A DNA stretch of 64,000 bases. Source: Candidatus Poribacteria bacterium. GTDB lineage: Bacteria; Poribacteria; WGA-4E; WGA-3G. The stretch covers positions 2,176,001 to 2,240,000 of the forward strand of contig OZ242029.1 of assembly GCA_965205015.1 (NCBI GenBank), read 5' to 3'. The translations under genes and the position numbers were made by a program. The notes beneath the pieces are model-generated. The model was not told the DNA's origin. It searched no databases and saw only the letters and a program-made list of their open reading frames with translations. Position 1 is the first letter of the stretch. The number at the start of each line of letters is the position of its first letter. Shown one piece after another: positions 19,652 through 55,488 of this stretch.

Positions 19652-21011
19652 GTCACTTACCCCCATTTTTTTCTGAAGGTTTGTGGTGAAAGGTTTTTGT
19701 TGTAAAAAGTGTGAGAAAGTCAGTGGGTTTATGATAAAATACCTCCTTACGGCAACCGTTTGTAATCGAGTTTACAAAACATGTAAGGAGGTATTTTATG
19801 AAAAAGAGATACCCAAAACGGGTAAATCCAGAAACAATGATAGCACGTTTTGGAGAAATCTTCAAGTCTGTTGGTATGAAAAAACCGGTTTTTCGGAATC
19901 TGGTGTTGGTCTTGATAGCGATCAGTGTTGCCCCGACGTTTCGGATCAATGAAATTGCGTCGCGTTTGTCGCTCGTCGTCAAGCGGGAAAAGTCGAAACA
20001 GAAAAGGTTTCTGCGTTTCCTTGACACCCCGTTGCCTGTGGATGCGCTGAAACGTGCTTGGTTTGTGTCGGTTGTAGGTTGGTTTTCCAAGGATGCCAAC
20101 GCTCATCTGTATTTGCTCGTTGATGAGACGTCTCTGATTGCCGGGTGGAAAGCACTTGTTGTTTCGATCCCGTTTCGGCATCGTGCGATCCCTGTCTTTT
20201 GGTTCATCTATAGCGATCAACAGCTTCACGAGGGTATCTATAAGAGTCATAATGAAATCATCCAATACTTCTGTGTTCATGTTTATCAAGAGGCTTTAGG
20301 GGTCGTGTCGCGGCATCAACAACGACCTGTTCTGGTGTTTGACCGTGGTTTTGGGCGTGCGCGATACGTCATCAAGTTTCTCAAGGCACGGGATATTGCG
20401 TTCGTGATGCGTGTTGCGAGGCATGTCGGTATCAGGCATGATGGGAGTCTGAAGAAACTTGATGACCTTGAAGCGGGCTGGTATCCGTATATCCTTTATC
20501 AGTCGCAGGAGCAGATACCGCTTCAACTTTATATCCTCAGAGACGGTGCCTTTAAAGACCCGATGTATCTTATCTCAAATCGCCTCAGTGGACATCAGAT
20601 ACATCACTGTTACAAAAGACGCATGCAGATTGAACACGGGTTCCGAGATATAAAGTCGTGCTTCGGCTTTGGCAAACTCGTCTTGAAAAAACCGACACAA
20701 ACGCGTCTGGATGTTCTCTGGCTGTGTGCCTGCTTGGCTTATGGATTGGTGTTTATCAGTTATGAGAAGGTCGCCTCTACACACTGGCAGAAGGCACATA
20801 ATAGTAATAACAGAAAAACTTTTTCTGTTATTACTATTATCAAACGCGTGCTCACCGACTTATGGAACCAACATTTTCTCATCTCCTTTTTCACGCAGAT
20901 ACATTCCAGGGGCGATCCGCCTTGGGAAACCCTTGGAAACTGACTTTCTCGCATACAAACCTGATGGCATCAACTACAATCTACTCTCGAAAAAAAATGG
21001 GGGTAAGTGAC
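19652..21011 (+). mobile_element. Complete IS4-family insertion sequence (1360 bp)
   Basis: Terminal inverted repeats GTCACTTACCCCCATTTTTTT / AAAAAAATGGGGGTAAGTGAC; 10-bp direct repeat GGTCGTCTAA at 19642-19651 and 21012-21021. Confidence 0.92.
19798..20943 (+). CDS. IS4-family DDE transposase
   Basis: VDET, FDRGF, and Y(2)R(3)E(6)K motif YKRRMQIEHGFRDIK; AAGGAGG RBS. Confidence 0.9.
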   Translation: MKKRYPKRVNPETMIARFGEIFKSVGMKKPVFRNLVLVLIAISVAPTFRINEIASRLSLVVKREKSKQKRFLRFLDTPLPVDALKRAWFVSVVGWFSKDANAHLYLLVDETSLIAGWKALVVSIPFRHRAIPVFWFIYSDQQLHEGIYKSHNEIIQYFCVHVYQEALGVVSRHQQRPVLVFDRGFGRARYVIKFLKARDIAFVMRVARHVGIRHDGSLKKLDDLEAGWYPYILYQSQEQIPLQLYILRDGAFKDPMYLISNRLSGHQIHHCYKRRMQIEHGFRDIKSCFGFGKLVLKKPTQTRLDVLWLCACLAYGLVFISYEKVASTHWQKAHNSNNRKTFSVITIIKRVLTDLWNQHFLISFFTQIHSRGDPPWETLGN

Positions 21012-21027
21012 GGTCGTCTAAACATTT

Positions 21028-22374
21028 CAGGGGTATTCAGTTTTCGGTTTTTTCGTAATATTTTTCACATCTGTTAATATTATAAAATAAACAGATACAG
21101 CGTGACTTTTCCCGCTGTATCTGCTATACTTCACCGTAAAAAACCATCACATTTTTTGAGGTGAATCATGACAAGAAGTTCCTCTTGCCACTTACTTGAC
21201 ATATTAGCAGAAGTTCCGGATCCACGCCATAAAAAAGGGAAACGCTACAACTTGGGGTCTATCCTTGCGCTGCTCGTCATCGGTGTAATGTCGAATCATA
21301 AAGGGTATACGTCTATAGCGACTTGGGCACGGCATCAAGGGGCCCTGGCAAAAGCGTTAGGTTTCAAATCAGAGAAGACCCCGTGTGCTGGAACGCTTCA
21401 TAATCTTTTGAAGCGTCTTGACGTCGTGAGTCTCGAAGCCTTACTCACGAAATGGGTGTTTTCAAAACTTGAAAGTCTTCAAGTTTTGAAAACACAGGAT
21501 TTACAAGGGGTGGCGATAGATGGCAAAGAGTTATGTGGCTCCAAAGACCCAGAAACCCGATACCGCACACATTTACTCTCCGCTGTCTCTCATGAGTTAG
21601 GGATTACCCTTACACAGCGGGCTGTCAGTGGAAAAACAAATGAGATCCCCATCTCAACGCAACTTCTGAAAACCTTTGATGTCACCGGGAAAGTCATAAC
21701 AACAGATGCACTTTTGACCCAAAGAACCTTTTGTAAAGAGGTTCTCAAATATCACGCAAACTATGCAATGCCCGTCAAAGAGAATCACAAACAGATGTAT
21801 CACGACATTCGCGAACTCTTTGAACCGCTTTCGGAGACAGACACACCACACGTCCAAGCACGACGGTTTCAGAACCTACACACCGAGGCAGACGCACACC
21901 TTGATACCCACACAGACGTTGAAACATCACACGGGTTTATCACCACACGCACGCTAACAGCAAGCACACTCTTGACGGATTATATCAACTGGCCAGGACT
22001 CGCACAAGTGTATCAATACCAATCCAAGCGGGAGAATACCAAAACAGGCGAGACTACCTACCAGACGCAGTATGGCATCACGAGTCTTACACCACAAGAC
22101 GCATCCGCAGAAACTTTGCTCAAACTCCGACGCCAACACTGGACGATAGAAAACAAAGTCCATTGGGTGCGAGATGTCGTCCTCGGGGAGGACGCTTCAC
22201 AAGCAAGAACAGGGAGACTCCCACAAGTCATGGCTGCCCTACGCAACACTGCCCTGGCTCTCTTACGCTTTGACGGACACACAAAAATTGCGGAAACACT
22301 GCGATTTTTCGCTGCAAAACCTAAACTCGCAGTTAAACTCATACAGTGACAAAACTTAAAACTAAATACCCCTG
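21028..22374 (+). mobile_element. Complete ISAs1-family insertion sequence (1347 bp)
   Basis: Terminal inverted repeats CAGGGGTATTCAGTTTT / AAAACTAAATACCCCTG; 10-bp direct repeat CTAAACATTT at 21018-21027 and 22375-22384. Confidence 0.92.
21168..22349 (+). CDS. ISAs1-family transposase
   Basis: VPDPR..G.RY, AIDGK, KTNEIP, DALLTQ, VKENH, SHG, RQHWTIENKVHWVRDV..GED. Confidence 0.93.
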   Translation: MTRSSSCHLLDILAEVPDPRHKKGKRYNLGSILALLVIGVMSNHKGYTSIATWARHQGALAKALGFKSEKTPCAGTLHNLLKRLDVVSLEALLTKWVFSKLESLQVLKTQDLQGVAIDGKELCGSKDPETRYRTHLLSAVSHELGITLTQRAVSGKTNEIPISTQLLKTFDVTGKVITTDALLTQRTFCKEVLKYHANYAMPVKENHKQMYHDIRELFEPLSETDTPHVQARRFQNLHTEADAHLDTHTDVETSHGFITTRTLTASTLLTDYINWPGLAQVYQYQSKRENTKTGETTYQTQYGITSLTPQDASAETLLKLRRQHWTIENKVHWVRDVVLGEDASQARTGRLPQVMAALRNTALALLRFDGHTKIAETLRFFAAKPKLAVKLIQ

Positions 22375-24995: not shown

Positions 24996-25247
24996 GTGAG
25001 ATCAATAGGAGCAAAAAAAATCCAAAAACTTGACCGTATAACATTTAATCCAAATGTAATGGGAGGCAAGCCTTGTATCCGCGGCATGCGGGTCACTGTC
25101 GGAATGATCGTTGGTTTGGTTGCCTCTGGTTGTTCCAACGCCGAGATTTTGGATGCCTACCCCTATTTAGAAAAGGAAGACATTCGTCAATCCCTTTCCT
25201 ATGCCGCGTGGCGAGTTCAAGAGATTGAAGTGCCAATCGGCCCATAA
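24996..25247 (+). CDS. DUF433 antitoxin (VapB45-like)
   Basis: RITFNPNVMGGKPCIRGMRVTV..IV...A.G....EIL.AYP.L..EDI...L.YAA; start codon uncertain. Confidence 0.9.
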   Translation: MRSIGAKKIQKLDRITFNPNVMGGKPCIRGMRVTVGMIVGLVASGCSNAEILDAYPYLEKEDIRQSLSYAAWRVQEIEVPIGP

Positions 25248-25624
25248 TGAAAGTGCTAATTGATATGAATCTTTCTATGAAATGGGTTCCCGTTTTTGAA
25301 CAATACGGATGGAGTGCGGTTCATTGGAGGAATATAGGTGAGCCGCACGCGTCAGATAGCACCATTATGACTTGGGCGCGTGAGAACGGTTATGTTGTGT
25401 TCACCCAAGATCTTGATTTTGGCACATTACTTGCAACTACCTATGTTCAAAAACCCAGTGTGATTCAAGTTCGGATACAGAACGCCCTACCGGAAAACTT
25501 AGGACCTTGGTTAGCAGGAATTCTTCAGCAACACGAAGCCTTCTTAGAAAACGGTGCTTTGCTTACCATCACCGAGGATCGAACTCAAGTGCGTGTTCTC
25601 CCATTCAAAGCGGACAATTCATAG
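25247..25624 (+). CDS. DUF5615 PIN-like toxin (VapC45-like)
   Basis: MKVLIDMNLS, D..I..WA, VFTQDLDFG; TAATG overlap with the antitoxin. Confidence 0.9.
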   Translation: MKVLIDMNLSMKWVPVFEQYGWSAVHWRNIGEPHASDSTIMTWARENGYVVFTQDLDFGTLLATTYVQKPSVIQVRIQNALPENLGPWLAGILQQHEAFLENGALLTITEDRTQVRVLPFKADNS

Positions 25625-27141: not shown

Positions 27142-28272
27142 CTATTGTAATTTCGCCTTTAATTCAGCGAGGTCTTTGTCAAGCGATGCCTCTTCAGCGT
27201 AGCTCGAAAATTCACGCTCTAATTTCGCATCCTGATATGCGACATCCACCTCAGCTGCCGTTTTCGCTAAAGTCGCTGCTTCGGTCGCATCCTGATCCAT
27301 CTTCGTAAGCGTTTCAAACGCCTTATTGTCCTGTATCTCTTTCAGCATTTCGCGAAGGTGTGCTTCTGCATTAACATTTCTGTGTTTCGCCACGACAGTT
27401 GTCTTTTTCCCCTCCGCTTCCATCGTTTTCTGCTGGAGATGCTCAAGGAGATCACTGAGGTCCCGAACGATCTGTTTCTGTTCTTCCCACCGTGTTTTAT
27501 ATTGATCCGCTAACCGTCGGTATTCGTTTCGTTTTTCCAAATCTTCGCGCGCCAAATCCTCGCGTCCGGCTTTAAGAGCAATGAGTGCCCGTTCCTGCCA
27601 CTGTTCTGCTTGGGCAACTGCACCTTCATAAGCCTCTTGAAACTGTTTTTCAACCCCAATAGAGGCAGCGACCTTCTCTTGTGCCTCCGAAAGCCGATTT
27701 TTCATCTCAACGATAACACGCTCTAATACGCGCTCTGGGTCTTCAGTTTCAATCTCAGTCTGTTCCGGTTCTGGTTCATATTTCACAACGACTGTCTCCG
27801 CGAACTTATCTCCGAGGCGTTGCTGTTTCTCCCCAAGGAACCAAAGTAGATCAAGGGGTTGAAGGATACCTGAGAATCGGCGAAGGAAAGCATCCTTGAA
27901 GGTACACGGCTTACCGTCTTTCAAACGAAGCACCTGTAGGGACAACAGTTTCTTCCCTATGCCTTGACCCTTCCTGAAACCATCTATGAAAAACAGACCG
28001 AATATCCACAAGGCAGCACTAAACAAAAAAGCAAAGACGCTGAGTCCCATGCCAGTTAATAGCGATCTGGATACATTGGAAGGGGCTGTAGGGAAATCGT
28101 CGGGGCCTGCAGGGAATATCGGGAAAAGCACGAATGTTGTTAGAAACGTTAGAAGAAGTACGAAACCTGATTGCACAGCACCTAAAAGCGCGATATCTAT
28201 AAAGAGTGCGTATAACCGTGTCATTCGGGATGCTAATTTAAATTTTTTTCCTGCAATTTTAATAGATTTCAT
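27142..28272 (-). CDS. RDD domain-PspA/IM30 fusion protein, copy 1
   Basis: RDD motifs R..A.FID, GQGIGKKLLSLQV, AFLRR, QRLGDKFAETVVV; then PspA EDPERVL, W..RA..AL..GREDLAREDL, ending LDKDLAELKAKL. Confidence 0.88.
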   Translation of the reverse strand: MKSIKIAGKKFKLASRMTRLYALFIDIALLGAVQSGFVLLLTFLTTFVLFPIFPAGPDDFPTAPSNVSRSLLTGMGLSVFAFLFSAALWIFGLFFIDGFRKGQGIGKKLLSLQVLRLKDGKPCTFKDAFLRRFSGILQPLDLLWFLGEKQQRLGDKFAETVVVKYEPEPEQTEIETEDPERVLERVIVEMKNRLSEAQEKVAASIGVEKQFQEAYEGAVAQAEQWQERALIALKAGREDLAREDLEKRNEYRRLADQYKTRWEEQKQIVRDLSDLLEHLQQKTMEAEGKKTTVVAKHRNVNAEAHLREMLKEIQDNKAFETLTKMDQDATEAATLAKTAAEVDVAYQDAKLEREFSSYAEEASLDKDLAELKAKLQ

Positions 28273-28325
28273 TTTCAAATCCTGAAAATTTTTTTGTGTT
28301 TACGTTACACACGTTCCGATAAATT

Positions 28326-29498
28326 TTACTTCTGCAATTTCGCCTTTAATTCAGCGAGGTCCTTGTCAAGCGATGCCTCTTCAGCATAGTTCGAAAATTC
28401 ACGCTCTAATTTCATATCCTGATATGCCACATCTACTTCAGCTGCTGCTTTCGCCAAGGTGGCCGCCTCGGTCGCATCCTGCTCCGTTTTTGCAAGCGCG
28501 TCGAGTGCTTTGCTGTCCTGTATCTCTTTTAACATCTCGCGCAGATGCGCTTCAGCGTCGATGTTTCTGTGTTGTGCCATGACAACAGTTTTTTTCCCCT
28601 CCGCTTCCATCGCTTTCTGCTGAAGATGCTCGAGGAGATCATTGAAATTTCGGACCATCTCTTTCTGTTCTTCCCACTGGTTTTTGTATTGATCCGCTAA
28701 CCGTCGATATTCGTTCCGTTTTTCCAAATCTTCACGAGCCAGATCTTCGCGTCCGGCTTCGAGAGATATAATCGCGCGTTCTTGCCACTGTTCAGCTTGG
28801 GAAACAGCACTTTCATAAGCATCCTGAAACTGTTTTTCAACACCGATAGAAGCGTTAACCTTCTCACGTGCTTCCGCAAGCCTGTCTTTCAGCTCAACGA
28901 TAATACCCTCTAAAACCCGCTCTGGGTCTTCAGTTTCAATCTCAGTCTGCTCCGATTCGGGTTCAAACTTCACAACAACCGTCTCTGCGAATTTATCTCC
29001 CATCCGCTGCCGTTTTTTTCCAAGTGTCCAGAGAGAATCCAGAGGTTGAAAGACGCTTGTGAGTCGGCGAATAAAAGAATCTTTGAAACTACACGGTTTA
29101 CCATCTTTCAATTTTAGCACCTGTAAGGACAGCAGTTTTTTGCCAAATCCCTGTCCATTTTTGAAGCCATCTATGAGAAACATGCTGGCTATCCACAAGA
29201 CGGTACCACTCTTCGCTAAAGTCTCGGGATTATTATGTCCCCACGGTCCGAACAGGAAAACTAAAAGCAATTGCGCGACAACCAATACATTTCTTGGGAG
29301 TTTCGTTTTAGGTCCTAATATCCACAGTAATGCACTGAGCAATCCAATCTGGACAAAACTGGGACTTACAGCTGCGAGAAGAAGGAATAAAGCGAGTAGG
29401 ATACTCGCTAAGAACATTCCATCAATGAAAAACGCGAACAATCGCGCAAATCGGGATGCCAATTTGAATTTTTTCCCTGCAATCTCAATAAACTTCAT
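28326..29498 (-). CDS. RDD domain-PspA/IM30 fusion protein, copy 2
   Basis: Same architecture as copy 1; PspA part very similar, TM region divergent. Confidence 0.88.
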   Translation of the reverse strand: MKFIEIAGKKFKLASRFARLFAFFIDGMFLASILLALFLLLAAVSPSFVQIGLLSALLWILGPKTKLPRNVLVVAQLLLVFLFGPWGHNNPETLAKSGTVLWIASMFLIDGFKNGQGFGKKLLSLQVLKLKDGKPCSFKDSFIRRLTSVFQPLDSLWTLGKKRQRMGDKFAETVVVKFEPESEQTEIETEDPERVLEGIIVELKDRLAEAREKVNASIGVEKQFQDAYESAVSQAEQWQERAIISLEAGREDLAREDLEKRNEYRRLADQYKNQWEEQKEMVRNFNDLLEHLQQKAMEAEGKKTVVMAQHRNIDAEAHLREMLKEIQDSKALDALAKTEQDATEAATLAKAAAEVDVAYQDMKLEREFSNYAEEASLDKDLAELKAKLQK

Positions 29499-29571
29499 CC
29501 TAAAACAGTCTCCTCGCTATACATATAGAGTCCGCAAGCGCAAAAAAGGATAGTCAAGTTATATTTTCTGT

Positions 29572-30177
29572 TTACGCTTTTTGTTCTACCATACTTGAGA
29601 GGATGCCGAGAATCTGGTCGCACTGTGCAATTGTGTAGACAGCCATATCAATATGCAGTTTTTGCCCCTCTAATTTGAGGAAAATCCAATCCGTGCCGGA
29701 GGTAGTCGTTCCATAGACGTATGGAATGCTATTTTTTCTTTCAGCGTTAAAGCGTTGCGCAGCGATCATCTCAGCAACGCATTGGCCCAATCCGAGTTTC
29801 ACGTCGGCATTTTTTGCTTCTACGAGCGCAATGACTGGTGCCTCTACGAAAAATTGCTCTGGCGACAAACTTATCAAAAAATCACACACCCCGGTTAAGT
29901 CATTTTCTGCATCAACGTTGAAATCAACACCCGAAAAGAGACTGATACGACGATCGAAGTGCTCGCGGAGTTCAAATAAGACATCGGTAATAATCAGCTC
30001 CGAGCGGGCCTTTTCTGTACCTATGGCAACGGCTAACGGCACCTTTTTTTTTAATTGCGTTGTAAGGTGTGAACTCGGCGTTATCGGCTCTATTTCAGAA
30101 AAGAGGTCTATAGACGCAACCCTTTCCAATTCAAACGCCATTCCAACGGATTCTAAAGTGAAATCGCTGTAAGCCAT
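29572..30177 (-). CDS. PD-(D/E)XK nuclease-fold / HsdR-N-like hypothetical protein (MAYSDFTL family)
   Basis: EKARSELII, G.CDF, VEAK, QCVAEM.AAQ.FN, TTSG..W.F. Confidence 0.65.
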   Translation of the reverse strand: MAYSDFTLESVGMAFELERVASIDLFSEIEPITPSSHLTTQLKKKVPLAVAIGTEKARSELIITDVLFELREHFDRRISLFSGVDFNVDAENDLTGVCDFLISLSPEQFFVEAPVIALVEAKNADVKLGLGQCVAEMIAAQRFNAERKNSIPYVYGTTTSGTDWIFLKLEGQKLHIDMAVYTIAQCDQILGILSSMVEQKA

Positions 30178-49853: not shown

Positions 49854-52022
49854 TTATTCTCCAATCTGCCGGGCAATGAGCGTCAAATCCAAAATGTTGA
49901 CGATCCCGTCCCCATTGAGATCGGGCGAATCCTGCCCAAAACGCGAGGCGATAAACGTCATATCCAGGATATTTACAACACCGTCGGCATTGACATCAGC
50001 AGGCTCCCGCGCATTCTGCTCAAAACGCTCAGCGATAAACGTTAAATCTAAGGCGTTGACGACACCATCGCCGTTGGCATCCCACGGAACTTGTGAAGGT
50101 TCGGATGCCAGCTCCCACAGCAGAATAGTGCCGTCCCAACTTCCACTCGCAAACGTCCTGCTATCGGGTGAAAAGATTAACTGTGTTATATCTTTTGTAT
50201 GCCCTTTGAGAATAGCCATAGGCAATTCTTGCGGTTCGTCCGTCCGGAAGGTAGATGCATCCCACAGCAGAATTGTACCGTCCCAACCTCCACTCGCAAA
50301 CGTCTCACCATCCGGCGAAAATGCTAACGCACCCACCTCGCCTGTGTGCCCTCTGAGCGTCGAAAGCCGCTCAGCAGTGTCTGCATCCCATAGCTGAATC
50401 GGTCCATAAGTCCCGCTACTTGCCAAGGTTTTACTATCCGGCGAGAACGCCAATCCAAAGACATCATCCCTACGTCCGCCAACCCGCTCCTGTTTACCAA
50501 GCGTCGCGCGATGTTGCCCCGAAGCGACATCCCACAAAAGAACCGCACTGTCCCCACCACCACTTGCCAACGTCTTGCCATCCGGCGAAAACGCCAACTC
50601 AAAAATCCAGTGTATATGCCCTTCAAGGGTGGCTTGGCGTTCTCCAGTTGCTAAATCCCACAGAAAAATCACATCGTTTTCACTCGTACTCGCAAGGGTT
50701 CTACCGTCTGGAGAAAACGCCGCTGTCCCGAAGAAATCTGGCAACATGAGGAGCGTCTGTGCGCCACCAGTTGCATGCCAGAGATAAACCGTGCCTTCAG
50801 AACTTACCCTATTGATATAAGCTATACCATTCAGTAAAAACGCCGCGGCTCTAATCCAACGGTTATGTCCGGTAAAGACGGATTCCTGCTCTTGTGCTGT
50901 TTCTGCATTCCATAGACGGAGGATACCATCCTCACTTCCATTCATAAGCATGCTCCCATCTGGAGAAAAGTCAAGTGCCGTAATAATCCCTGGGTAGGCA
51001 TGGAGAACGGTCTTCAGTTGAATATCAACAGTGTTTGAGGTCTGCAGGGTATCAAGGCTCCACAAGCGAACCGTATTATCATCACCTACACTGGCAAGTG
51101 TTCTGCTATCCGGGGAGAACGCGACGGAATAGATGTGCCATCTATGTGCTGCGAGCGTCCCGCGCTGTTGTCCGGTGTCTGCATCCCACAAGCGCATTGT
51201 ACCGTTTCCACCCCCACTGGCAAGGCGTGTACCGTCGGGTGAGAACGCAACGGCAGAAACAAAATGTGTATGCCCAGTCAGACGCTCGCGATGTTGGTTC
51301 GTGTTCGTATCCCACAAACGAATTGTATTGGTGCTGTCGCCACTGACGAGGGTTGCACCCTCTGATGAGAATGCCAAAGCCCAGACTCGAGCTCCCCTAA
51401 AAATAATATCGTGTTCGCCAGTATTGACATCCCATAACCGAACCGTGCCATCCCGACTGCCACTTGCAAGTGTTCTACCATCCGGTGAAAACTTCACAGT
51501 TCTGAGGCCTTCCGTGTGTCCCGTAAAGGTCGCATGATGTTGGGCAGTTGTGGCATCCCACAACTGAACGATATTTTCATAATCCGCGCCACTCGCAAGC
51601 ATGCTGCCATCGGGGGAAAACGCGAGTGTTACGATCGGTCGTTCATGTCCTTTGAGTGTCGTCCGTAGCTCCCTGGTAGAGACATCCCACAGGAGAAGCG
51701 TCCCATCTGTCCCACCACCGACAAGGACTGTCCCATCCGGCGAATACGCACAGGACCGAGTGCCGCGCGTCCGATCCGTGAGCAGATCAATCTCTTGGTA
51801 TGTCTGGGCATCATAAAGCCAGATGCCTATCGAACTCGCTACGGCGATTTGGGTCCCATCTGGCGAGAACTGAACGTCAGTGGGACTGCCTTTACTCAGC
51901 CGCGCACTCGCACCTTCGGGTAAACGCCAGCGAGCGAAATCTACCGTGAAACCTTCGTGCGAAAACAGAACAAAAGTGGATAGCAGAGAGAGAATAAAAA
52001 AGAGAATCTTCGTTTTTTGCAT
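49854..52022 (-). CDS. Secreted WD40-repeat protein with C-terminal dockerin-like repeats
   Basis: Signal peptide; many GH...AFSPDG..LASG..D..WD repeats; three D.N.DG.VN.LDL repeats. Confidence 0.9.
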   Translation of the reverse strand: MQKTKILFFILSLLSTFVLFSHEGFTVDFARWRLPEGASARLSKGSPTDVQFSPDGTQIAVASSIGIWLYDAQTYQEIDLLTDRTRGTRSCAYSPDGTVLVGGGTDGTLLLWDVSTRELRTTLKGHERPIVTLAFSPDGSMLASGADYENIVQLWDATTAQHHATFTGHTEGLRTVKFSPDGRTLASGSRDGTVRLWDVNTGEHDIIFRGARVWALAFSSEGATLVSGDSTNTIRLWDTNTNQHRERLTGHTHFVSAVAFSPDGTRLASGGGNGTMRLWDADTGQQRGTLAAHRWHIYSVAFSPDSRTLASVGDDNTVRLWSLDTLQTSNTVDIQLKTVLHAYPGIITALDFSPDGSMLMNGSEDGILRLWNAETAQEQESVFTGHNRWIRAAAFLLNGIAYINRVSSEGTVYLWHATGGAQTLLMLPDFFGTAAFSPDGRTLASTSENDVIFLWDLATGERQATLEGHIHWIFELAFSPDGKTLASGGGDSAVLLWDVASGQHRATLGKQERVGGRRDDVFGLAFSPDSKTLASSGTYGPIQLWDADTAERLSTLRGHTGEVGALAFSPDGETFASGGWDGTILLWDASTFRTDEPQELPMAILKGHTKDITQLIFSPDSRTFASGSWDGTILLWELASEPSQVPWDANGDGVVNALDLTFIAERFEQNAREPADVNADGVVNILDMTFIASRFGQDSPDLNGDGIVNILDLTLIARQIGE

Positions 52023-52025
52023 TTT

Positions 52026-54296
52026 CTACTCCACCTCCTCAGAAAGATGACTCGCCACGGATGTCAAATCCAAAATATTGACGATCCCGTCACCGTTGAC
52101 ATCCGCTGGGGCTTGCGCCAAACGTGAGGCAACCAGCGTCAAATCCAGGATATTGACGACCCCATCACCGTTGACATCGGGTGAATCCTGTCCGAAACTA
52201 TTGGCAACCAGCGTCAAGTCTTGGACATTAATGATCCCATCACCGTTGACATCCCACGGCGTTTGTGAAACCGGCACTAACGACGACGCACGCTCGCCAG
52301 GTGCGAGATCCCAAAGAAGAATCGTCCCATCCCAACTCCCACTTACGAGCGTCCCACCATCTGATGTAAATGCTAAGGCAACGATGCCCTGCGTATGTCC
52401 TTCAAAAGCACGCTGGTAGCTACCGATGGCCACATCCCATAGGATAACTGTATTGTCCTTGCCACCACTCGCGAGCGTCTTACCGTCCGGGGAGAAGGCG
52501 AGGGAATAGACATCATCCGTATGCCCACCATTGAGGGTGAAGAGACGGCTCTCAGTCCTTAGATCCCACAACCGAATTCCCTGATAGCCGGCACTGGCGA
52601 GAATAGTTCCATCTGGAGAAAACGTTACAACTGTCCCCGCTCGCCAGTGGGGACGCACCTCTCCAAGCGTGGTTTTCAGTTCTCCAGTCTCTGGATCCCA
52701 CAATCGAACCGCTCCATCCCAACGACCACTGGCGAGGGTGCTGCCATCTGGTGAAAACGCCATGGAATAAATGGTTTCTGCGGATTCTTCAAAGATTGTT
52801 TGTTGTTGACCCGTGTGAGCATCCCATAACCGAATCGGCTCTGTTCTACCCCCACTGGCGAGGGTGCTGCCATCTGGCGAAAATGCCAACGTAAGGACTT
52901 CGTCAGTATGCGCTGTAAGAATCACCTGTGGTTGGGAATCAATAACCGATGGTGATTGCTCAGTATTTATGTCCCATAACCGAATCGTCTTATCGTCGCT
53001 CGCACTGGCGAAGATTTTCCCATTCGGAGAGAATGCCAATGCATTCACCTGCCTTGTATGCGCTTTTAACGCTGTTTCTGATCGTTGTGTATCTATATTC
53101 CACAACAAAATCGGGGCTTCCCAATCTCCACTGGCACGTCTGGAACCGTAAGTTCCACTCGCAAGCGTCTGACTGTCCGGAGAGAGTGCCATAGTAGTAA
53201 GATGATCCGTATGACCTTTCAGGTCAGTTTTTTGGAGTTGCACACCACTAACATCCCACGCTCGAATTGTCCCATCGCGATTGGCACTACTGAAAGTCGT
53301 GCCGTTCGAGGAAAATACAATATCAGCAACTTCAGTCGGATGCGCGCTGAGTGCCCTGATGTGTTGTCCAGTGCTCGCGTCCCATAAACCGACTTCACCG
53401 CGTCGACTGCCACTGATAAGGGTTTTTCCATCTGGCGAAAACGCAACCGCTGTGAGCCAATCCGAACTTCCCATCAAAGTTGAGAGTTGGCTTTTAGTGC
53501 GTATATCCCACGAACGAATTGTTCGGTCCCAACTCGCACTGACGAGTGTTTTTCCATCTGGCGAAAACGCAACCGCTTCAATTTCAGACGTGTGTCCTTC
53601 AAACGTCGCGAGGTGTTGGCTTGTGGTGACATCCCACAACTGAACTATGTAATTATTGCTTGTCAGTGGCAGCGCATGCCCCCCATTGGCAAGGATGCTA
53701 CCATCTGGCGAGAACGCGAGTGCCCTTGCCCGCCCCGTCTGCGCATCCAGGATTGCCTTGTGCTGCCCGGTTTCTATATCCCACAAACGAACGGATCCAT
53801 AACTACTACTGGCGAGCGTTTTTCCATCCCGTGAGAACGCTACTGCCCAGATACCATACGTATGCTGCGTAAGGGAAACTCTATGTTGCCCGGTTTCTAC
53901 ATCCCACAAACGGATTGTGGTGTCCCCGCTACCACTGGCGAGGCTCTTGCTATCCGGCGAGAACGCCACGCTCCAGACGGGCTGCGTATGTCCCGTAAGC
54001 AAGGCGACCTCTGCACCGGTCTGCGCATGATAGAGCCAAACACCGATAGAACCCGCTACAGCAACCAAGGTCCCATCGGGTGAAAATTTTATATCGTTGA
54101 TAGTCCCTTTCCCAATGCGGGCTTTCGCACCTTCAGGTAACCGCAATTGTGTATAATCTTCGGCATGAACGTTGGATGGAAGGAGGATGGCAGTTAACAA
54201 GAAAAGCAAACCGAGAAAACAGGTCTGAATAGCATCACGCAGATATACACGTGTAGAAAGTGCCCCTATGCGGAAACGCAATTGCTTAGCCTTCAC
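52026..54296 (-). CDS. Secreted WD40-repeat protein with C-terminal dockerin-like repeats
   Basis: LPEGAKARIGKG lead-in, about 14 WD40 repeats, three DVNGDG..N..DL repeats; GGAGG RBS before GTG. Confidence 0.9.
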   Translation of the reverse strand: MKAKQLRFRIGALSTRVYLRDAIQTCFLGLLFLLTAILLPSNVHAEDYTQLRLPEGAKARIGKGTINDIKFSPDGTLVAVAGSIGVWLYHAQTGAEVALLTGHTQPVWSVAFSPDSKSLASGSGDTTIRLWDVETGQHRVSLTQHTYGIWAVAFSRDGKTLASSSYGSVRLWDIETGQHKAILDAQTGRARALAFSPDGSILANGGHALPLTSNNYIVQLWDVTTSQHLATFEGHTSEIEAVAFSPDGKTLVSASWDRTIRSWDIRTKSQLSTLMGSSDWLTAVAFSPDGKTLISGSRRGEVGLWDASTGQHIRALSAHPTEVADIVFSSNGTTFSSANRDGTIRAWDVSGVQLQKTDLKGHTDHLTTMALSPDSQTLASGTYGSRRASGDWEAPILLWNIDTQRSETALKAHTRQVNALAFSPNGKIFASASDDKTIRLWDINTEQSPSVIDSQPQVILTAHTDEVLTLAFSPDGSTLASGGRTEPIRLWDAHTGQQQTIFEESAETIYSMAFSPDGSTLASGRWDGAVRLWDPETGELKTTLGEVRPHWRAGTVVTFSPDGTILASAGYQGIRLWDLRTESRLFTLNGGHTDDVYSLAFSPDGKTLASGGKDNTVILWDVAIGSYQRAFEGHTQGIVALAFTSDGGTLVSGSWDGTILLWDLAPGERASSLVPVSQTPWDVNGDGIINVQDLTLVANSFGQDSPDVNGDGVVNILDLTLVASRLAQAPADVNGDGIVNILDLTSVASHLSEEVE

Positions 54297-54306
54297 AACT
54301 CACCTC

Positions 54307-55488
54307 CTATTTTCCGATATACTTTGCAACGAGTGTCAAATCTAAAACGTTAACAACACCATCACCGTTAAGATCCGGTGATGCCTGCCCGAAACGCGAT
54401 GCAATAAACGCCAAATCCAAGACATTCACGACCCTATCGTTATTGACATCCCACGGAATACGCGCCAGAGAAGCCGTCAAAGATCTCAGCTGAATAGTGC
54501 CATCAAGACTCGCGCTTGCGAGGGCTGTGCCATCAGAACTATCGGTATCCGGTAGGAACGCTAAGGCAAAAACTGGAGCGGTATACGCTTCAAATATTGC
54601 CTGTAACTGCCCGGTGGATAAATCCCACATACGGATTGTGTTATCCCAACCCGCACTCACAAGGGGGCTCCCATTAACCCCATAGACATCCGACGCAAAC
54701 GCTAAGGCAAGCACCGGTGTGGTGTGGTTTTCAAAGGTAGCGAGGAGATTTCCAGTGTGTATATGCCACACACGAATGGTACTCCCCGCCTCCGAACTCC
54801 AATATCCGCCGCTCGCTAAGGTTTGATTGTCCGGCGAAAAAGCGAGTGCCAGAATTGAGTCGGTATGTGCAGAGAGATTGTGTCGGAGTTGAAAAGTTTC
54901 CAAATCCCATAATAAGATTGTCCCATAAAAGCTCGCGCTTGCCAGCGTCTTGCTATCGGATGAGAACGCTAACGTGGTGACCATATCCCGATGTCCACGA
55001 AGGACTGTGGCACGACGCATCTGTCCCCAGGTTAAATCCCACAAACGAATCTCCTTGAAACTTCCACTGGCGAGCATGTTACCATCCGGAGAGAATGCCA
55101 ACGCTACGACTGGATCGGTATGGCTTGTAAAATCTATTATGTTTTCACGGGTCTGTGTGTTCCAGAGGTGGATAGTAGAATCTTCATTCGCACTTGCAAC
55201 GATGCGGTTGTCGGGAGAGAACGCCAGGGTCGTCACGTGCCCCATTGACGACGGTAGCAGCGCAAGGGTTTCACCGGTATAGATGTCATACACGGTGATA
55301 CCGTTTACGCCTGCGACAGCGAGGTGTGTGCCATCAGGAGAGAAAGTTATAGCGTTTATTGCCGTTGTTGGACCGAGGGATGCCGCATCGCCTTCAAATA
55401 CCTGCCATTGCGTCACATCTTGGGCAAGGCTGCTCGGTAGGAACAAGACATAAACGAACAGATAGATAAAGATTCGGTGATGTTTCAC
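54307..55488 (-). CDS. Secreted WD40 protein (single propeller) with dockerin-like domain
   Basis: Signal peptide, about 7 WD40 repeats, two D.N.D.VVNVLDL repeats. Confidence 0.9.
   Translation of the reverse strand: MKHHRIFIYLFVYVLFLPSSLAQDVTQWQVFEGDAASLGPTTAINAITFSPDGTHLAVAGVNGITVYDIYTGETLALLPSSMGHVTTLAFSPDNRIVASANEDSTIHLWNTQTRENIIDFTSHTDPVVALAFSPDGNMLASGSFKEIRLWDLTWGQMRRATVLRGHRDMVTTLAFSSDSKTLASASFYGTILLWDLETFQLRHNLSAHTDSILALAFSPDNQTLASGGYWSSEAGSTIRVWHIHTGNLLATFENHTTPVLALAFASDVYGVNGSPLVSAGWDNTIRMWDLSTGQLQAIFEAYTAPVFALAFLPDTDSSDGTALASASLDGTIQLRSLTASLARIPWDVNNDRVVNVLDLAFIASRFGQASPDLNGDGVVNVLDLTLVAKYIGK

Follow-up and report, generated by a model that had tools for sequence, protein, structure and literature searches.

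Two adjacent genes, A and B, in a 64,000-nucleotide stretch of Candidatus Poribacteria DNA (contig OZ242029.1, positions 2,176,001 to 2,240,000; this whole stretch is called the window below) each code for an RDD membrane domain joined in frame to a PspA/IM30 domain that, by alignment, lacks the N-terminal amphipathic helix alpha0. We consider it probable, with moderate confidence, that A and B are Poribacteria-specific integral-membrane PspA proteins of the bacterial ESCRT-III type, and that their tethered cores polymerise and stabilise or reshape the membrane. The two fusions had been described before in a reading of this DNA made from the sequence alone (the sequence-only reading). Its observation is confirmed here and its interpretation is supported in part; the claim that the proteins carry diversified sensor domains is not supported. 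That reading missed that the fusions form a phylum-restricted family in tandem arrays of varying copy number, and also that their halves recombine between paralogs and that related genomes keep a canonical soluble PspA.

Two adjacent genes code for RDD-PspA fusion proteins

A and B are two co-directional open reading frames (ORFs) on the minus strand, and the proteins they encode are 67% identical overall. The features of the two genes are listed here with the evidence for each, which includes AlphaFold2 (AF2) models, their predicted local distance difference test scores (pLDDT) and the ratio of nonsynonymous to synonymous substitution rates (dN/dS).

28326..29498, minus strand: gene B, RDD-PspA fusion of 390 aa, the array-upstream copy (ORF; Pfam RDD 1.1e-9 and PspA_IM30 2e-20; AF2)
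28965..29498, minus strand: residues 1-178 of B, RDD membrane domain (Pfam, AF2, family alignment)
29166..29453, minus strand: residues 16-111 of B, variable transmembrane (TM) region (low conservation in the family, 21% identity to A, dN/dS 0.34)
28938..28964, minus strand: residues 179-187 of B, acidic flexible linker (pLDDT below 50 at residues 181-188)
28329..28937, minus strand: residues 188-390 of B, PspA/IM30 domain, alpha1 to alpha5, aligned without alpha0 (Pfam; Vipp1 7o3w, 8.2e-17; Foldseek; VIA-align)
28273..28325, minus strand: spacer of 53 nt between B and A (ORF ends and choice of start)
27142..28272, minus strand: gene A, RDD-PspA fusion of 376 aa, the downstream copy (ORF; Pfam; AF2, mean pLDDT 85.8)
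27778..28272, minus strand: residues 1-165 of A, RDD membrane domain (Pfam, AF2)
27751..27777, minus strand: residues 166-174 of A, acidic linker (pLDDT below 50 at residues 169-175)
27145..27750, minus strand: residues 175-376 of A, PspA/IM30 domain, alpha1 to alpha5, aligned without alpha0 (Pfam 1.9e-21; AF2 helices 179-234, 238-315 and 317-375)

The ORF list puts the start of A at TTG 28278. The most likely start is ATG 28272, six bases further on, because from this codon the protein reads MKSIKIAG, like the MKFIEIAG at the start of B, and because AGGA lies 8 nt upstream of it. No minus-strand terminator-like site was found inside the 53-nt spacer and therefore B and A are likely to be co-transcribed. 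The numbers of promoter-like and terminator-like sites in the region were within those of shuffled sequences and no promoter is claimed.

The PspA domain and the absence of alpha0

In a Pfam profile scan, run as a check on the sequence-only reading, both proteins exceeded the gathering scores of both families. For PspA_IM30 (PF04012, cut-off 33.9 bits) A scored 77.2 bits (1.9e-21) and B 73.8 bits (2e-20), and for RDD (PF06271, cut-off 24.1 bits) they scored 53.1 and 39.2 bits, respectively, over profile positions 2-136 of 137. The report of two adjacent co-directional fusions is thus borne out. The PspA part had been said to run from an EDP motif to an LAELKAKL helix, and indeed it extends from E-D-P (residues 190-192 of B) to the C-terminal LAELKAKL helix, the match in both proteins spanning profile positions 20-217 of 220. 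Because the match begins at position 20, alpha0 is absent as judged from the profile alignment, and the RDD domain and the linker are in its place, which is what had been claimed for the N-terminal helix. When phmmer was run against PDB sequences, residues 188-388 of B aligned with residues 20/21-216/217 of Vipp1 (8.2e-17 for 7o3w), with 27-29% identity to the solved Vipp1 chains over about 200 residues, and residues 188-311 aligned with residues 21-144 of E. coli PspA. HMMER gave, among representative sequences, about 100 canonical PspAs with lengths near 220-260 aa, in which the alignment to residues 188/189-388 of B begins at residue 21 or 22. In the multiple alignment the canonical alpha0 (MGIF.R...) has no counterpart in the fusions, where E-D-P is preceded by the C-terminus of the RDD domain (...AETVVVK) and an acidic stretch. 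At the other end both proteins stop at alpha5 (residue 390 in B and 376 in A), the Vipp1 alignment ends at Vipp1 residue 216-217, and no Vipp1-type C-terminal extension (alpha6) was found in either protein.

The PspA helices in both AF2 models correspond to alpha1, alpha2+3, alpha4 and alpha5. The mean pLDDT is 79.5 for B and 85.8 for A, and it is above 90 over the alpha1-alpha3 hairpin. Foldseek against the PDB gave 15 matches at E <= 0.001, those listed being Vipp1 or PspA, and residues 1-144 of E. coli PspA (4whe) superpose at a root mean square deviation (rmsd) of 1.8 over 118 columns. The modelled C-terminal domain therefore adopts the ESCRT-III-type hairpin that the sequence-only reading had expected. 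VIA-align, which is independent of Foldseek, ranked 4whe_A first (Z 12.5, rmsd 2.7, 122 aligned), with generic coiled-coil and helical hairpins close behind at Z 11-12. Snf7, CHMP and Asgard ESCRT-IIIB reached Foldseek E-values of only 0.2-1, and their VIA-align Z scores of 9.6-11.2 are inside the range of generic helical hairpins. All the matches in the two fold searches were taken up by the PspA part.

The RDD domain and membrane topology

The model of B has a beta-hairpin (residues 3-13), four predicted TM helices (16-43, 47-61, 69-83 and 91-111) and a cytoplasmic core (112-178). That of A has a beta-hairpin at 3-13, two long predicted TM helices (16-49 and 67-98) between which lies a loop of 17 residues, and then the cytoplasmic core. 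In the models this core is made up of short helices and strands, and the loops on the periplasmic side are short, at 3-17 residues. A family alignment was made of 140 members from 69 related loci and the window, and at least 98% of them have R19, D110 and D168 (B numbering); in our own reading of the alignment these would be the R, D and D that gave the family its name. The linker between the two domains has a median length of 11 residues and a median net charge of -4 across the family.

The N-terminus and the PspA domain are predicted to be on the cytoplasmic side because the number of TM helices is even, the N-terminus is rich in K and R (6-7 K+R versus 0-1 D+E in residues 1-20), the loop between TM2 and TM3 of B is basic (K64, K66 and R69), and the segment after the last TM helix (138-156) does not span the membrane but is amphipathic, as its hydrophobicity averages about 0 and its hydrophobic moment is 0.47-0.58. 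The even number of predicted TM helices, the N-terminal K and R residues and the amphipathic helix after the last TM helix also argue for the permanent anchoring that had been proposed earlier.

Conservation and selection

Across the family the mean top-residue frequency is 0.78-0.80 in the N-terminal hairpin, the cytoplasmic RDD core and the PspA helices alike, and 0.40, with 23% gaps, in the TM region (residues 16-111 of B). The residues kept in at least 98% of members are R16, R19, D26, D110, G111, G119, K120, R144, R145, Q151, P152, D154, R165, D168 and K169. The identity of A to B is 82% over the PspA domain and 73% over the cytoplasmic RDD core but falls to 21% over the TM region, so the earlier statement that the PspA halves are alike and the TM parts differ is correct. 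Between orthologues the identities are 71-96% in the PspA domain, 76-96% in the RDD core and 43-92% in the TM region. The dN/dS values, which are crude pairwise Nei-Gojobori estimates with dS near saturation in some regions, are 0.04-0.12 in the PspA domain and 0.03-0.12 in the RDD core and rise to 0.12-0.35 in the TM region. Since dN/dS is below 1 in every region, both genes are, by this measure, functional and under purifying selection throughout, and the values for the TM helices indicate selection that is relaxed yet still purifying.

The domain-wise dN/dS comparison had been suggested as a check on the sequence-only reading, which took the membrane parts to be diversified sensor domains. 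No positive selection was found on the variable membrane part, where dN/dS is 0.12-0.35, or in any other region. What varies is the TM helices and the short periplasmic loops, and the cytoplasmic RDD core is as conserved as the PspA domain. Very short periplasmic loops and a conserved RDD surface that faces the cytoplasm do not fit with diversified sensor domains, and that proposal is not supported.

Exchange of halves between tandem paralogs

Trees were made separately for the two halves of 74 sequences from 31 loci. In the tree of the RDD columns the paralog types track the position in the array, with Shimodaira-Hasegawa-like approximate likelihood ratio (SH-aLRT) support of 93 for the B type, 94 for the A type, and 96 and 99 for two further types. 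The PspA columns reject the RDD-defined B-type clade of 30 rows (log-likelihood difference 79.5; approximately unbiased (AU) test, p 2.3e-5), and reciprocally, when the clade of the PspA tree is forced on the RDD columns the log-likelihood difference is 134.3 (AU p 1e-6). Because the RDD and PspA trees differ significantly in these tests, the alignments point to exchange or homogenisation of the RDD and PspA halves between tandem paralogs by recombination. The RDD half has the highest dS between A and B, at 1.54, followed by the PspA half at 0.83 and the linker at 0.52; among orthologues dS varies by region in both directions. The sequence-only reading had noted identical DNA blocks in the two PspA halves. 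There are six identical runs of at least 20 nt where 2.3 are expected (P = 0.008), and to this extent the claim stands, but the longest run, of 32 nt, is within chance when compared to shuffles (P = 0.18). The blocks were therefore rejected as proof of gene conversion, and the tree tests carry the argument instead. Module-wise recombination between tandem copies would make this family a clean example of domain-level concerted evolution.

Taxonomic range

As far as the searches reach, the fusion appears to be confined to Candidatus Poribacteria. The best 120 of 659 database matches all carry both Pfam domains, and the sole named one among them is Candidatus Poribacteria. A stronger test of range than the genome scan described below was an exhaustive HMMER search of 1.84 billion representatives, which gave proteins of at least 42% identity followed directly by canonical PspAs (best 150 of 1469 matches); a very divergent fusion may exist elsewhere. 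Both RDD and PspA_IM30 (E <= 0.001) were found in 10 of the 30 representatives that were scanned with Pfam, all 10 being in the close family, and the one named cluster among ten that were looked up is Poribacteria. The ESM Atlas gave a single RDD+PspA cluster with 115 members, in which Poribacteria is the commonest taxon. In a scan of one genome per prokaryotic species, which picks up close peptide patterns and leaves distant relatives out of reach, all 69 loci were from metagenome-assembled genomes of Poribacteria or from "uncultured bacterium". Of 175 species genomes in the phylum, 104 give a match at E <= 1e-60. The remaining 71 comprise 17 genomes without a match at E <= 1e-5 and 54 with weaker matches only, and in five of these 54 that were inspected the matches are to separate proteins, namely RDD proteins and PspAs that stand alone and have alpha0. 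One member of the family is labelled "PspA/IM30 family protein" at NCBI.

Two loci, L070 and L072, were considered as examples of a split RDD gene and PspA gene in relatives that have no fusion. They were rejected because their PspAs are ordinary stand-alone proteins with alpha0 (L070, 1471-2181, minus strand; L072, 1438-2298, plus strand), 33-39% identical to the PspA domain of the fusion. In both loci the PspA gene adjoins a GFO/IDH/MocA-like gene of 360 aa, and a GFO gene also flanks the fusion array; this may be a coincidence because the phylum is rich in such genes. Candidates for other membrane-anchored PspAs among the long database representatives were rejected too: three (P0166, P0243 and P0259) resemble VIPP1 with a transit peptide, the N-terminus of P0186 is not hydrophobic, and P0199 is a PspA-TIC20 gene model.

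Tandem arrays and neighboring genes

The fusion genes are at a fixed chromosomal site with a GFO/IDH/MocA oxidoreductase gene upstream in 67 of the 69 related loci and a sulfatase gene downstream in 65 of 69. In the 40 loci listed, the GFO gene is 88-98% identical and the B-like copies between the flanks are only 48-86% identical. When the window is included there are 70 loci, some of them cut by contig ends, and the number of full-length copies is none in 1 locus, one in 17, two in 35, three in 16 and four in 1, so that at least two copies are present in 52 of 70. Altogether 139 full-length ORFs in 69 of the 70 loci and 11 fragments were counted. Split or truncated copies, for example an RDD-only piece beside a PspA-only piece, are seen at L067 (5977-7058), L009 (10124-11268) and L012 (5845-6885), and such fragments suggest ongoing gene birth and death. 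Other architectures were also seen. At L048 (2093-4732, plus strand, genome G005) one open frame of 879-886 aa has four RDD repeats and then a single PspA domain, the representatives P0122-P0125 (504-716 aa) have at least two RDD matches, and P0121 (389 aa) has the linker and the first part of alpha1 duplicated internally, which appears as an insert of about 45 residues in the alignment. The sequence upstream of the first array gene is of two unrelated types in the window (29499-29640) and L001-L036, and the type in the window is common to L009, L033 and L036.

The sequence-only reading had recognised no pspF, pspB or pspC in the window, and none was detected here: the 61 non-overlapping ORFs of at least 60 aa in the window, 50 of which were scanned at E <= 1e-5, gave no PspB, PspC, PspF or Lia-type domain. 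Genome-wide statements about soluble PspA, RDD and PspC refer to five complete or near-complete genomes related to that of the window. PspC (PF04024) was found in none of the five, while PspB, PspF and Lia were sought in the window only. The search for a stand-alone pspA that had been suggested was positive in all five genomes, each of which has an ORF of this kind, 227-258 aa long and matching the profile from positions 3-11 onward, together with a weaker PspA-like ORF of about 300 aa. Each of the five also has one stand-alone RDD gene. No Vps4-type ATPase was found adjoining the array.

Between the GFO gene and B in the window there is an ORF of 201 aa (29572-30177, minus strand) which has no Pfam match and matches PADLOC PD_DExK ("CRISPR-associated") at 1.4e-48. 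An ORF of this PD-(D/E)xK type is at the same position in only 9 of the 69 related loci and is therefore a sporadic insertion by the array. Just beyond the sulfatase gene (24996-25624, plus strand) a DUF433 gene (83 aa) overlaps by 1 base with a DUF5615/PIN-like gene (125 aa); the two look like a toxin-antitoxin-type pair, and in the related loci DUF433 is found in 33 of 69 and DUF5615 in 20 of 69. Farther away in the window are a pair of neighboring genes for DDE transposases (381 and 393 aa; 19798-22349, plus strand) amid sulfatase genes, and three consecutive genes for WD40 beta-propeller proteins of 722, 756 and 393 aa with eukaryote-like repeats (49854-55488, minus strand).

Proposed function of the fusion proteins

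The predicted topology would place the PspA core permanently at the inner face of the cytoplasmic membrane, tethered there by the RDD domain, and the tether would be at the alpha1 end from which alpha0 normally reaches the bilayer. Alpha0 is described as a stalk that links the core and the bilayer, and PspA alpha1-5 without alpha0 as still forming rods (235-290 Å) with no lipid uptake (PMC12358876). Because the RDD domain is attached at the same alpha1 end as alpha0, a membrane-bound polymer of fusions is geometrically plausible. By analogy with known PspA and Vipp1, the tethered cores would form carpets, spirals or coats of polymer on the membrane. The paralogs would probably co-assemble, perhaps also with the soluble PspA encoded elsewhere, and the polymer may stabilise or reshape the membrane without recruiters of the PspB/C or LiaI type. 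Beyond anchoring, the RDD domain probably also serves some other purpose through its conserved cytoplasmic face, such as regulation or ion handling.

Several points weigh against this proposal. The orientation of the domains in the models is uncertain (predicted template modelling scores 0.40 and 0.47). With an anchor of 2-4 helices and an RDD core on each subunit, and with the narrow lumen of PspA rods and Vipp1 rings, assembly may differ from that of the known proteins or may fail. The high conservation of the cytoplasmic RDD core suggests that RDD is more than an anchor and that PspA might be the accessory part. Finally, the matches to the NCBIfam PspA/LiaH equivalogs are all sub-threshold, with 68.5-68.7 bits against 242.95 for TIGR02977, 42.5-48.7 against 336 for NF007974 and 32.4-47.7 against 380 for NF045984; because of this A and B are, by profile score, not orthologues of the E. 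coli PspA or Bacillus LiaH proteins.

A different role for the same membrane-bound proteins would be that of a built-in nucleator or receptor. The fusions would then not polymerise themselves but be fixed membrane seeds that capture and nucleate the soluble PspA that has alpha0, and would replace the PspB/C or LiaI recruiters. All five related genomes have such a stand-alone PspA and none has PspC. Moreover, the PspA domain of the fusions is nearer to poribacterial stand-alone PspAs (33-39% identity, up to 126.6 bits) than to the canonical PspAs listed (at most 94 bits, best 150 of 1469). At 33-39% identity, however, co-polymerisation with soluble PspA is not obvious, and one to four full-length copies per locus with strong purifying selection over the whole of alpha1-alpha5 exceed what a seed would seem to need. 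We regard this role as rather unlikely.

We also thought of a bolder version of our own proposal, in which the tandem paralogs co-assemble into a membrane-integral ESCRT-III-like heteropolymer that actively shapes or vesiculates the cytoplasmic membrane in these sponge symbionts and does not merely patch it. Recombination would then keep the polymerising halves mutually compatible while the anchors diverge. The homogenised PspA halves suggest that the paralogs co-assemble. Conversion driven by homology could by itself produce such homogenisation, and the heteropolymer is, in our judgment, unlikely. If it were true, it would be a bacterial counterpart of the multi-subunit ESCRT-III of eukaryotes. 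A link to the cell compartmentation reported for Poribacteria was considered and dropped because, in the portion of that report available, the granules do not seem to be membrane-bound and phage shock proteins are not mentioned (PMC5087111).

It is also conceivable that RDD is the working part, a small cation or proton transporter or channel, and that PspA gates, clusters or protects it and in this way, for instance, links ion flux to membrane state or to the proton-motive force. PspA has been linked to maintenance of the proton-motive force. The signature and charged residues of the RDD half (R16, R19, D26, D110, K120, R144, R145, D154, R165, D168 and K169) are among those kept in at least 98% of the 140 members, and one characterised RDD protein, from Halobacillus andaensis, is described as a Na+(Li+,K+)/H+ antiporter that needs conserved R and D residues (PMC5996927). 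This one experimental report is, however, all that backs transport by any RDD protein. The TM helices, where the transport path would be expected, are the least conserved part and differ in number (two versus four), and all five related genomes have a separate stand-alone RDD gene. Transport as the main function therefore appears improbable.

An anti-phage or conflict system, that is, a fast-changing array of membrane effectors situated in a variable hotspot and acting on the membrane upon infection, is very improbable. It would fit with 0-4 full-length copies per locus at one fixed site, with the faster evolution of the array than of its flanks (48-86% for B versus 88-98% for GFO), with the PD-(D/E)xK gene by the array in 9 of 69 other loci and in the window, and with the DUF433/DUF5615 pair nearby. 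But neither A nor B has a PADLOC or PHROGs match, viral contigs yielded no relative, and dN/dS stays below 1 throughout. Moreover, most genomes of the clade have the genes, and the single syntenic chromosomal site at which they are found resembles a housekeeping locus passed on vertically. That the fusions are artefacts of assembly or gene calling or are decaying pseudogenes is effectively refuted since, despite split or truncated copies in a few loci (11 fragments versus 139 full-length ORFs), the same uninterrupted architecture recurs in 69 of 70 loci and in independent assemblies that include complete chromosomes, with dN/dS of about 0.1.

If our proposal of tethered PspA cores is right, the family is of interest beyond this phylum. 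Research on PspA, Vipp1 and ESCRT-III centres on a soluble subunit that reaches the membrane via alpha0 and then polymerises. The fusions would be a natural experiment in which alpha0 has been deleted and a covalent multi-pass anchor put in its place, a design that appears to be under purifying selection in about 100 species-level genomes of one phylum. With them one could ask how a lattice of the ESCRT-III type behaves if all of its subunits are held in the bilayer. In addition, the poorly understood RDD domain gains its first clear functional partner, and the fusions would be a lineage-specific envelope trait of Poribacteria, which are dominant uncultivated sponge symbionts.

Comparison with known systems

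Like PspA, Vipp1 (IM30) and LiaH, the fusions have the full alpha1-alpha5 core with the E-D-P start, alpha5, the long hairpin of alpha1 and alpha2+3, and a predicted cytoplasmic location. They differ from these three in that RDD and an acidic linker replace alpha0 and in that they occur as tandem paralog arrays. Unlike Vipp1 they have no C-terminal extension, and unlike in the classical Psp and Lia systems no PspB/C/F or LiaI/F partners were found in the window, nor PspC in the five relatives.

PspA proteins are described as being about 200-250 aa long without extra domains, and combinations of PspC and PspA are described in Firmicutes (PMC9239133). Going by that description, the Firmicutes proteins resemble the fusions in that PspA is covalently joined to a membrane-spanning domain; the phylum is different, and the anchor is RDD, which has no known link to psp, instead of PspC, a known partner of PspA. 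According to the main text of a survey of Psp systems, more than 98% of PspA homologues carry PspA_IM30 alone, and the fusions it lists are of PspA with NlpC/P60 or PspAA and, in Actinobacteria, of Snf7 with an RND-family transporter (PMC11237479). These are rare (less than 2% of the PspA homologues there) and join a domain from the ESCRT-III superfamily with another module, once a multi-pass membrane protein, but the partner domains and the lineages are others. The term RDD does not occur in the main text of this survey, whose supplements and web application of architectures, outside the search, could include the fusion. It does not occur either in the text and five supplementary files of PMC9239133, and a review (PMC7619361) has neither "RDD" nor "transmembrane". 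No paper on an RDD-PspA fusion was found in the literature searched for PspA with RDD, for Poribacteria with PspA, and for transmembrane fusions of PspA or ESCRT-III. Thus, as far as this literature goes, a PspA/ESCRT-III-type protein with a built-in RDD membrane domain is a design that has not yet been studied.

As members of the RDD family (PF06271) A and B score above the cut-off, keep the R, D and D, are predicted to span the membrane, and have the N-terminal R at the start of TM1. Unlike typical RDD proteins they are fused to PspA, their TM helices are hypervariable and number two or four, and the segment after the conserved GKK loop is amphipathic and not hydrophobic.

The paralog sets of eukaryotic and archaeal ESCRT-III co-polymerise. 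The fusions are like them in that there are several paralogous subunits per organism, and here the putatively polymerising halves are apparently kept similar by recombination. They are unlike them in that the subunits are predicted to be membrane-integral and that no Vps4-type ATPase is seen by the array. The family would allow a test of whether paralogs co-polymerise in bacteria as they do in the ESCRT-III of eukaryotes.

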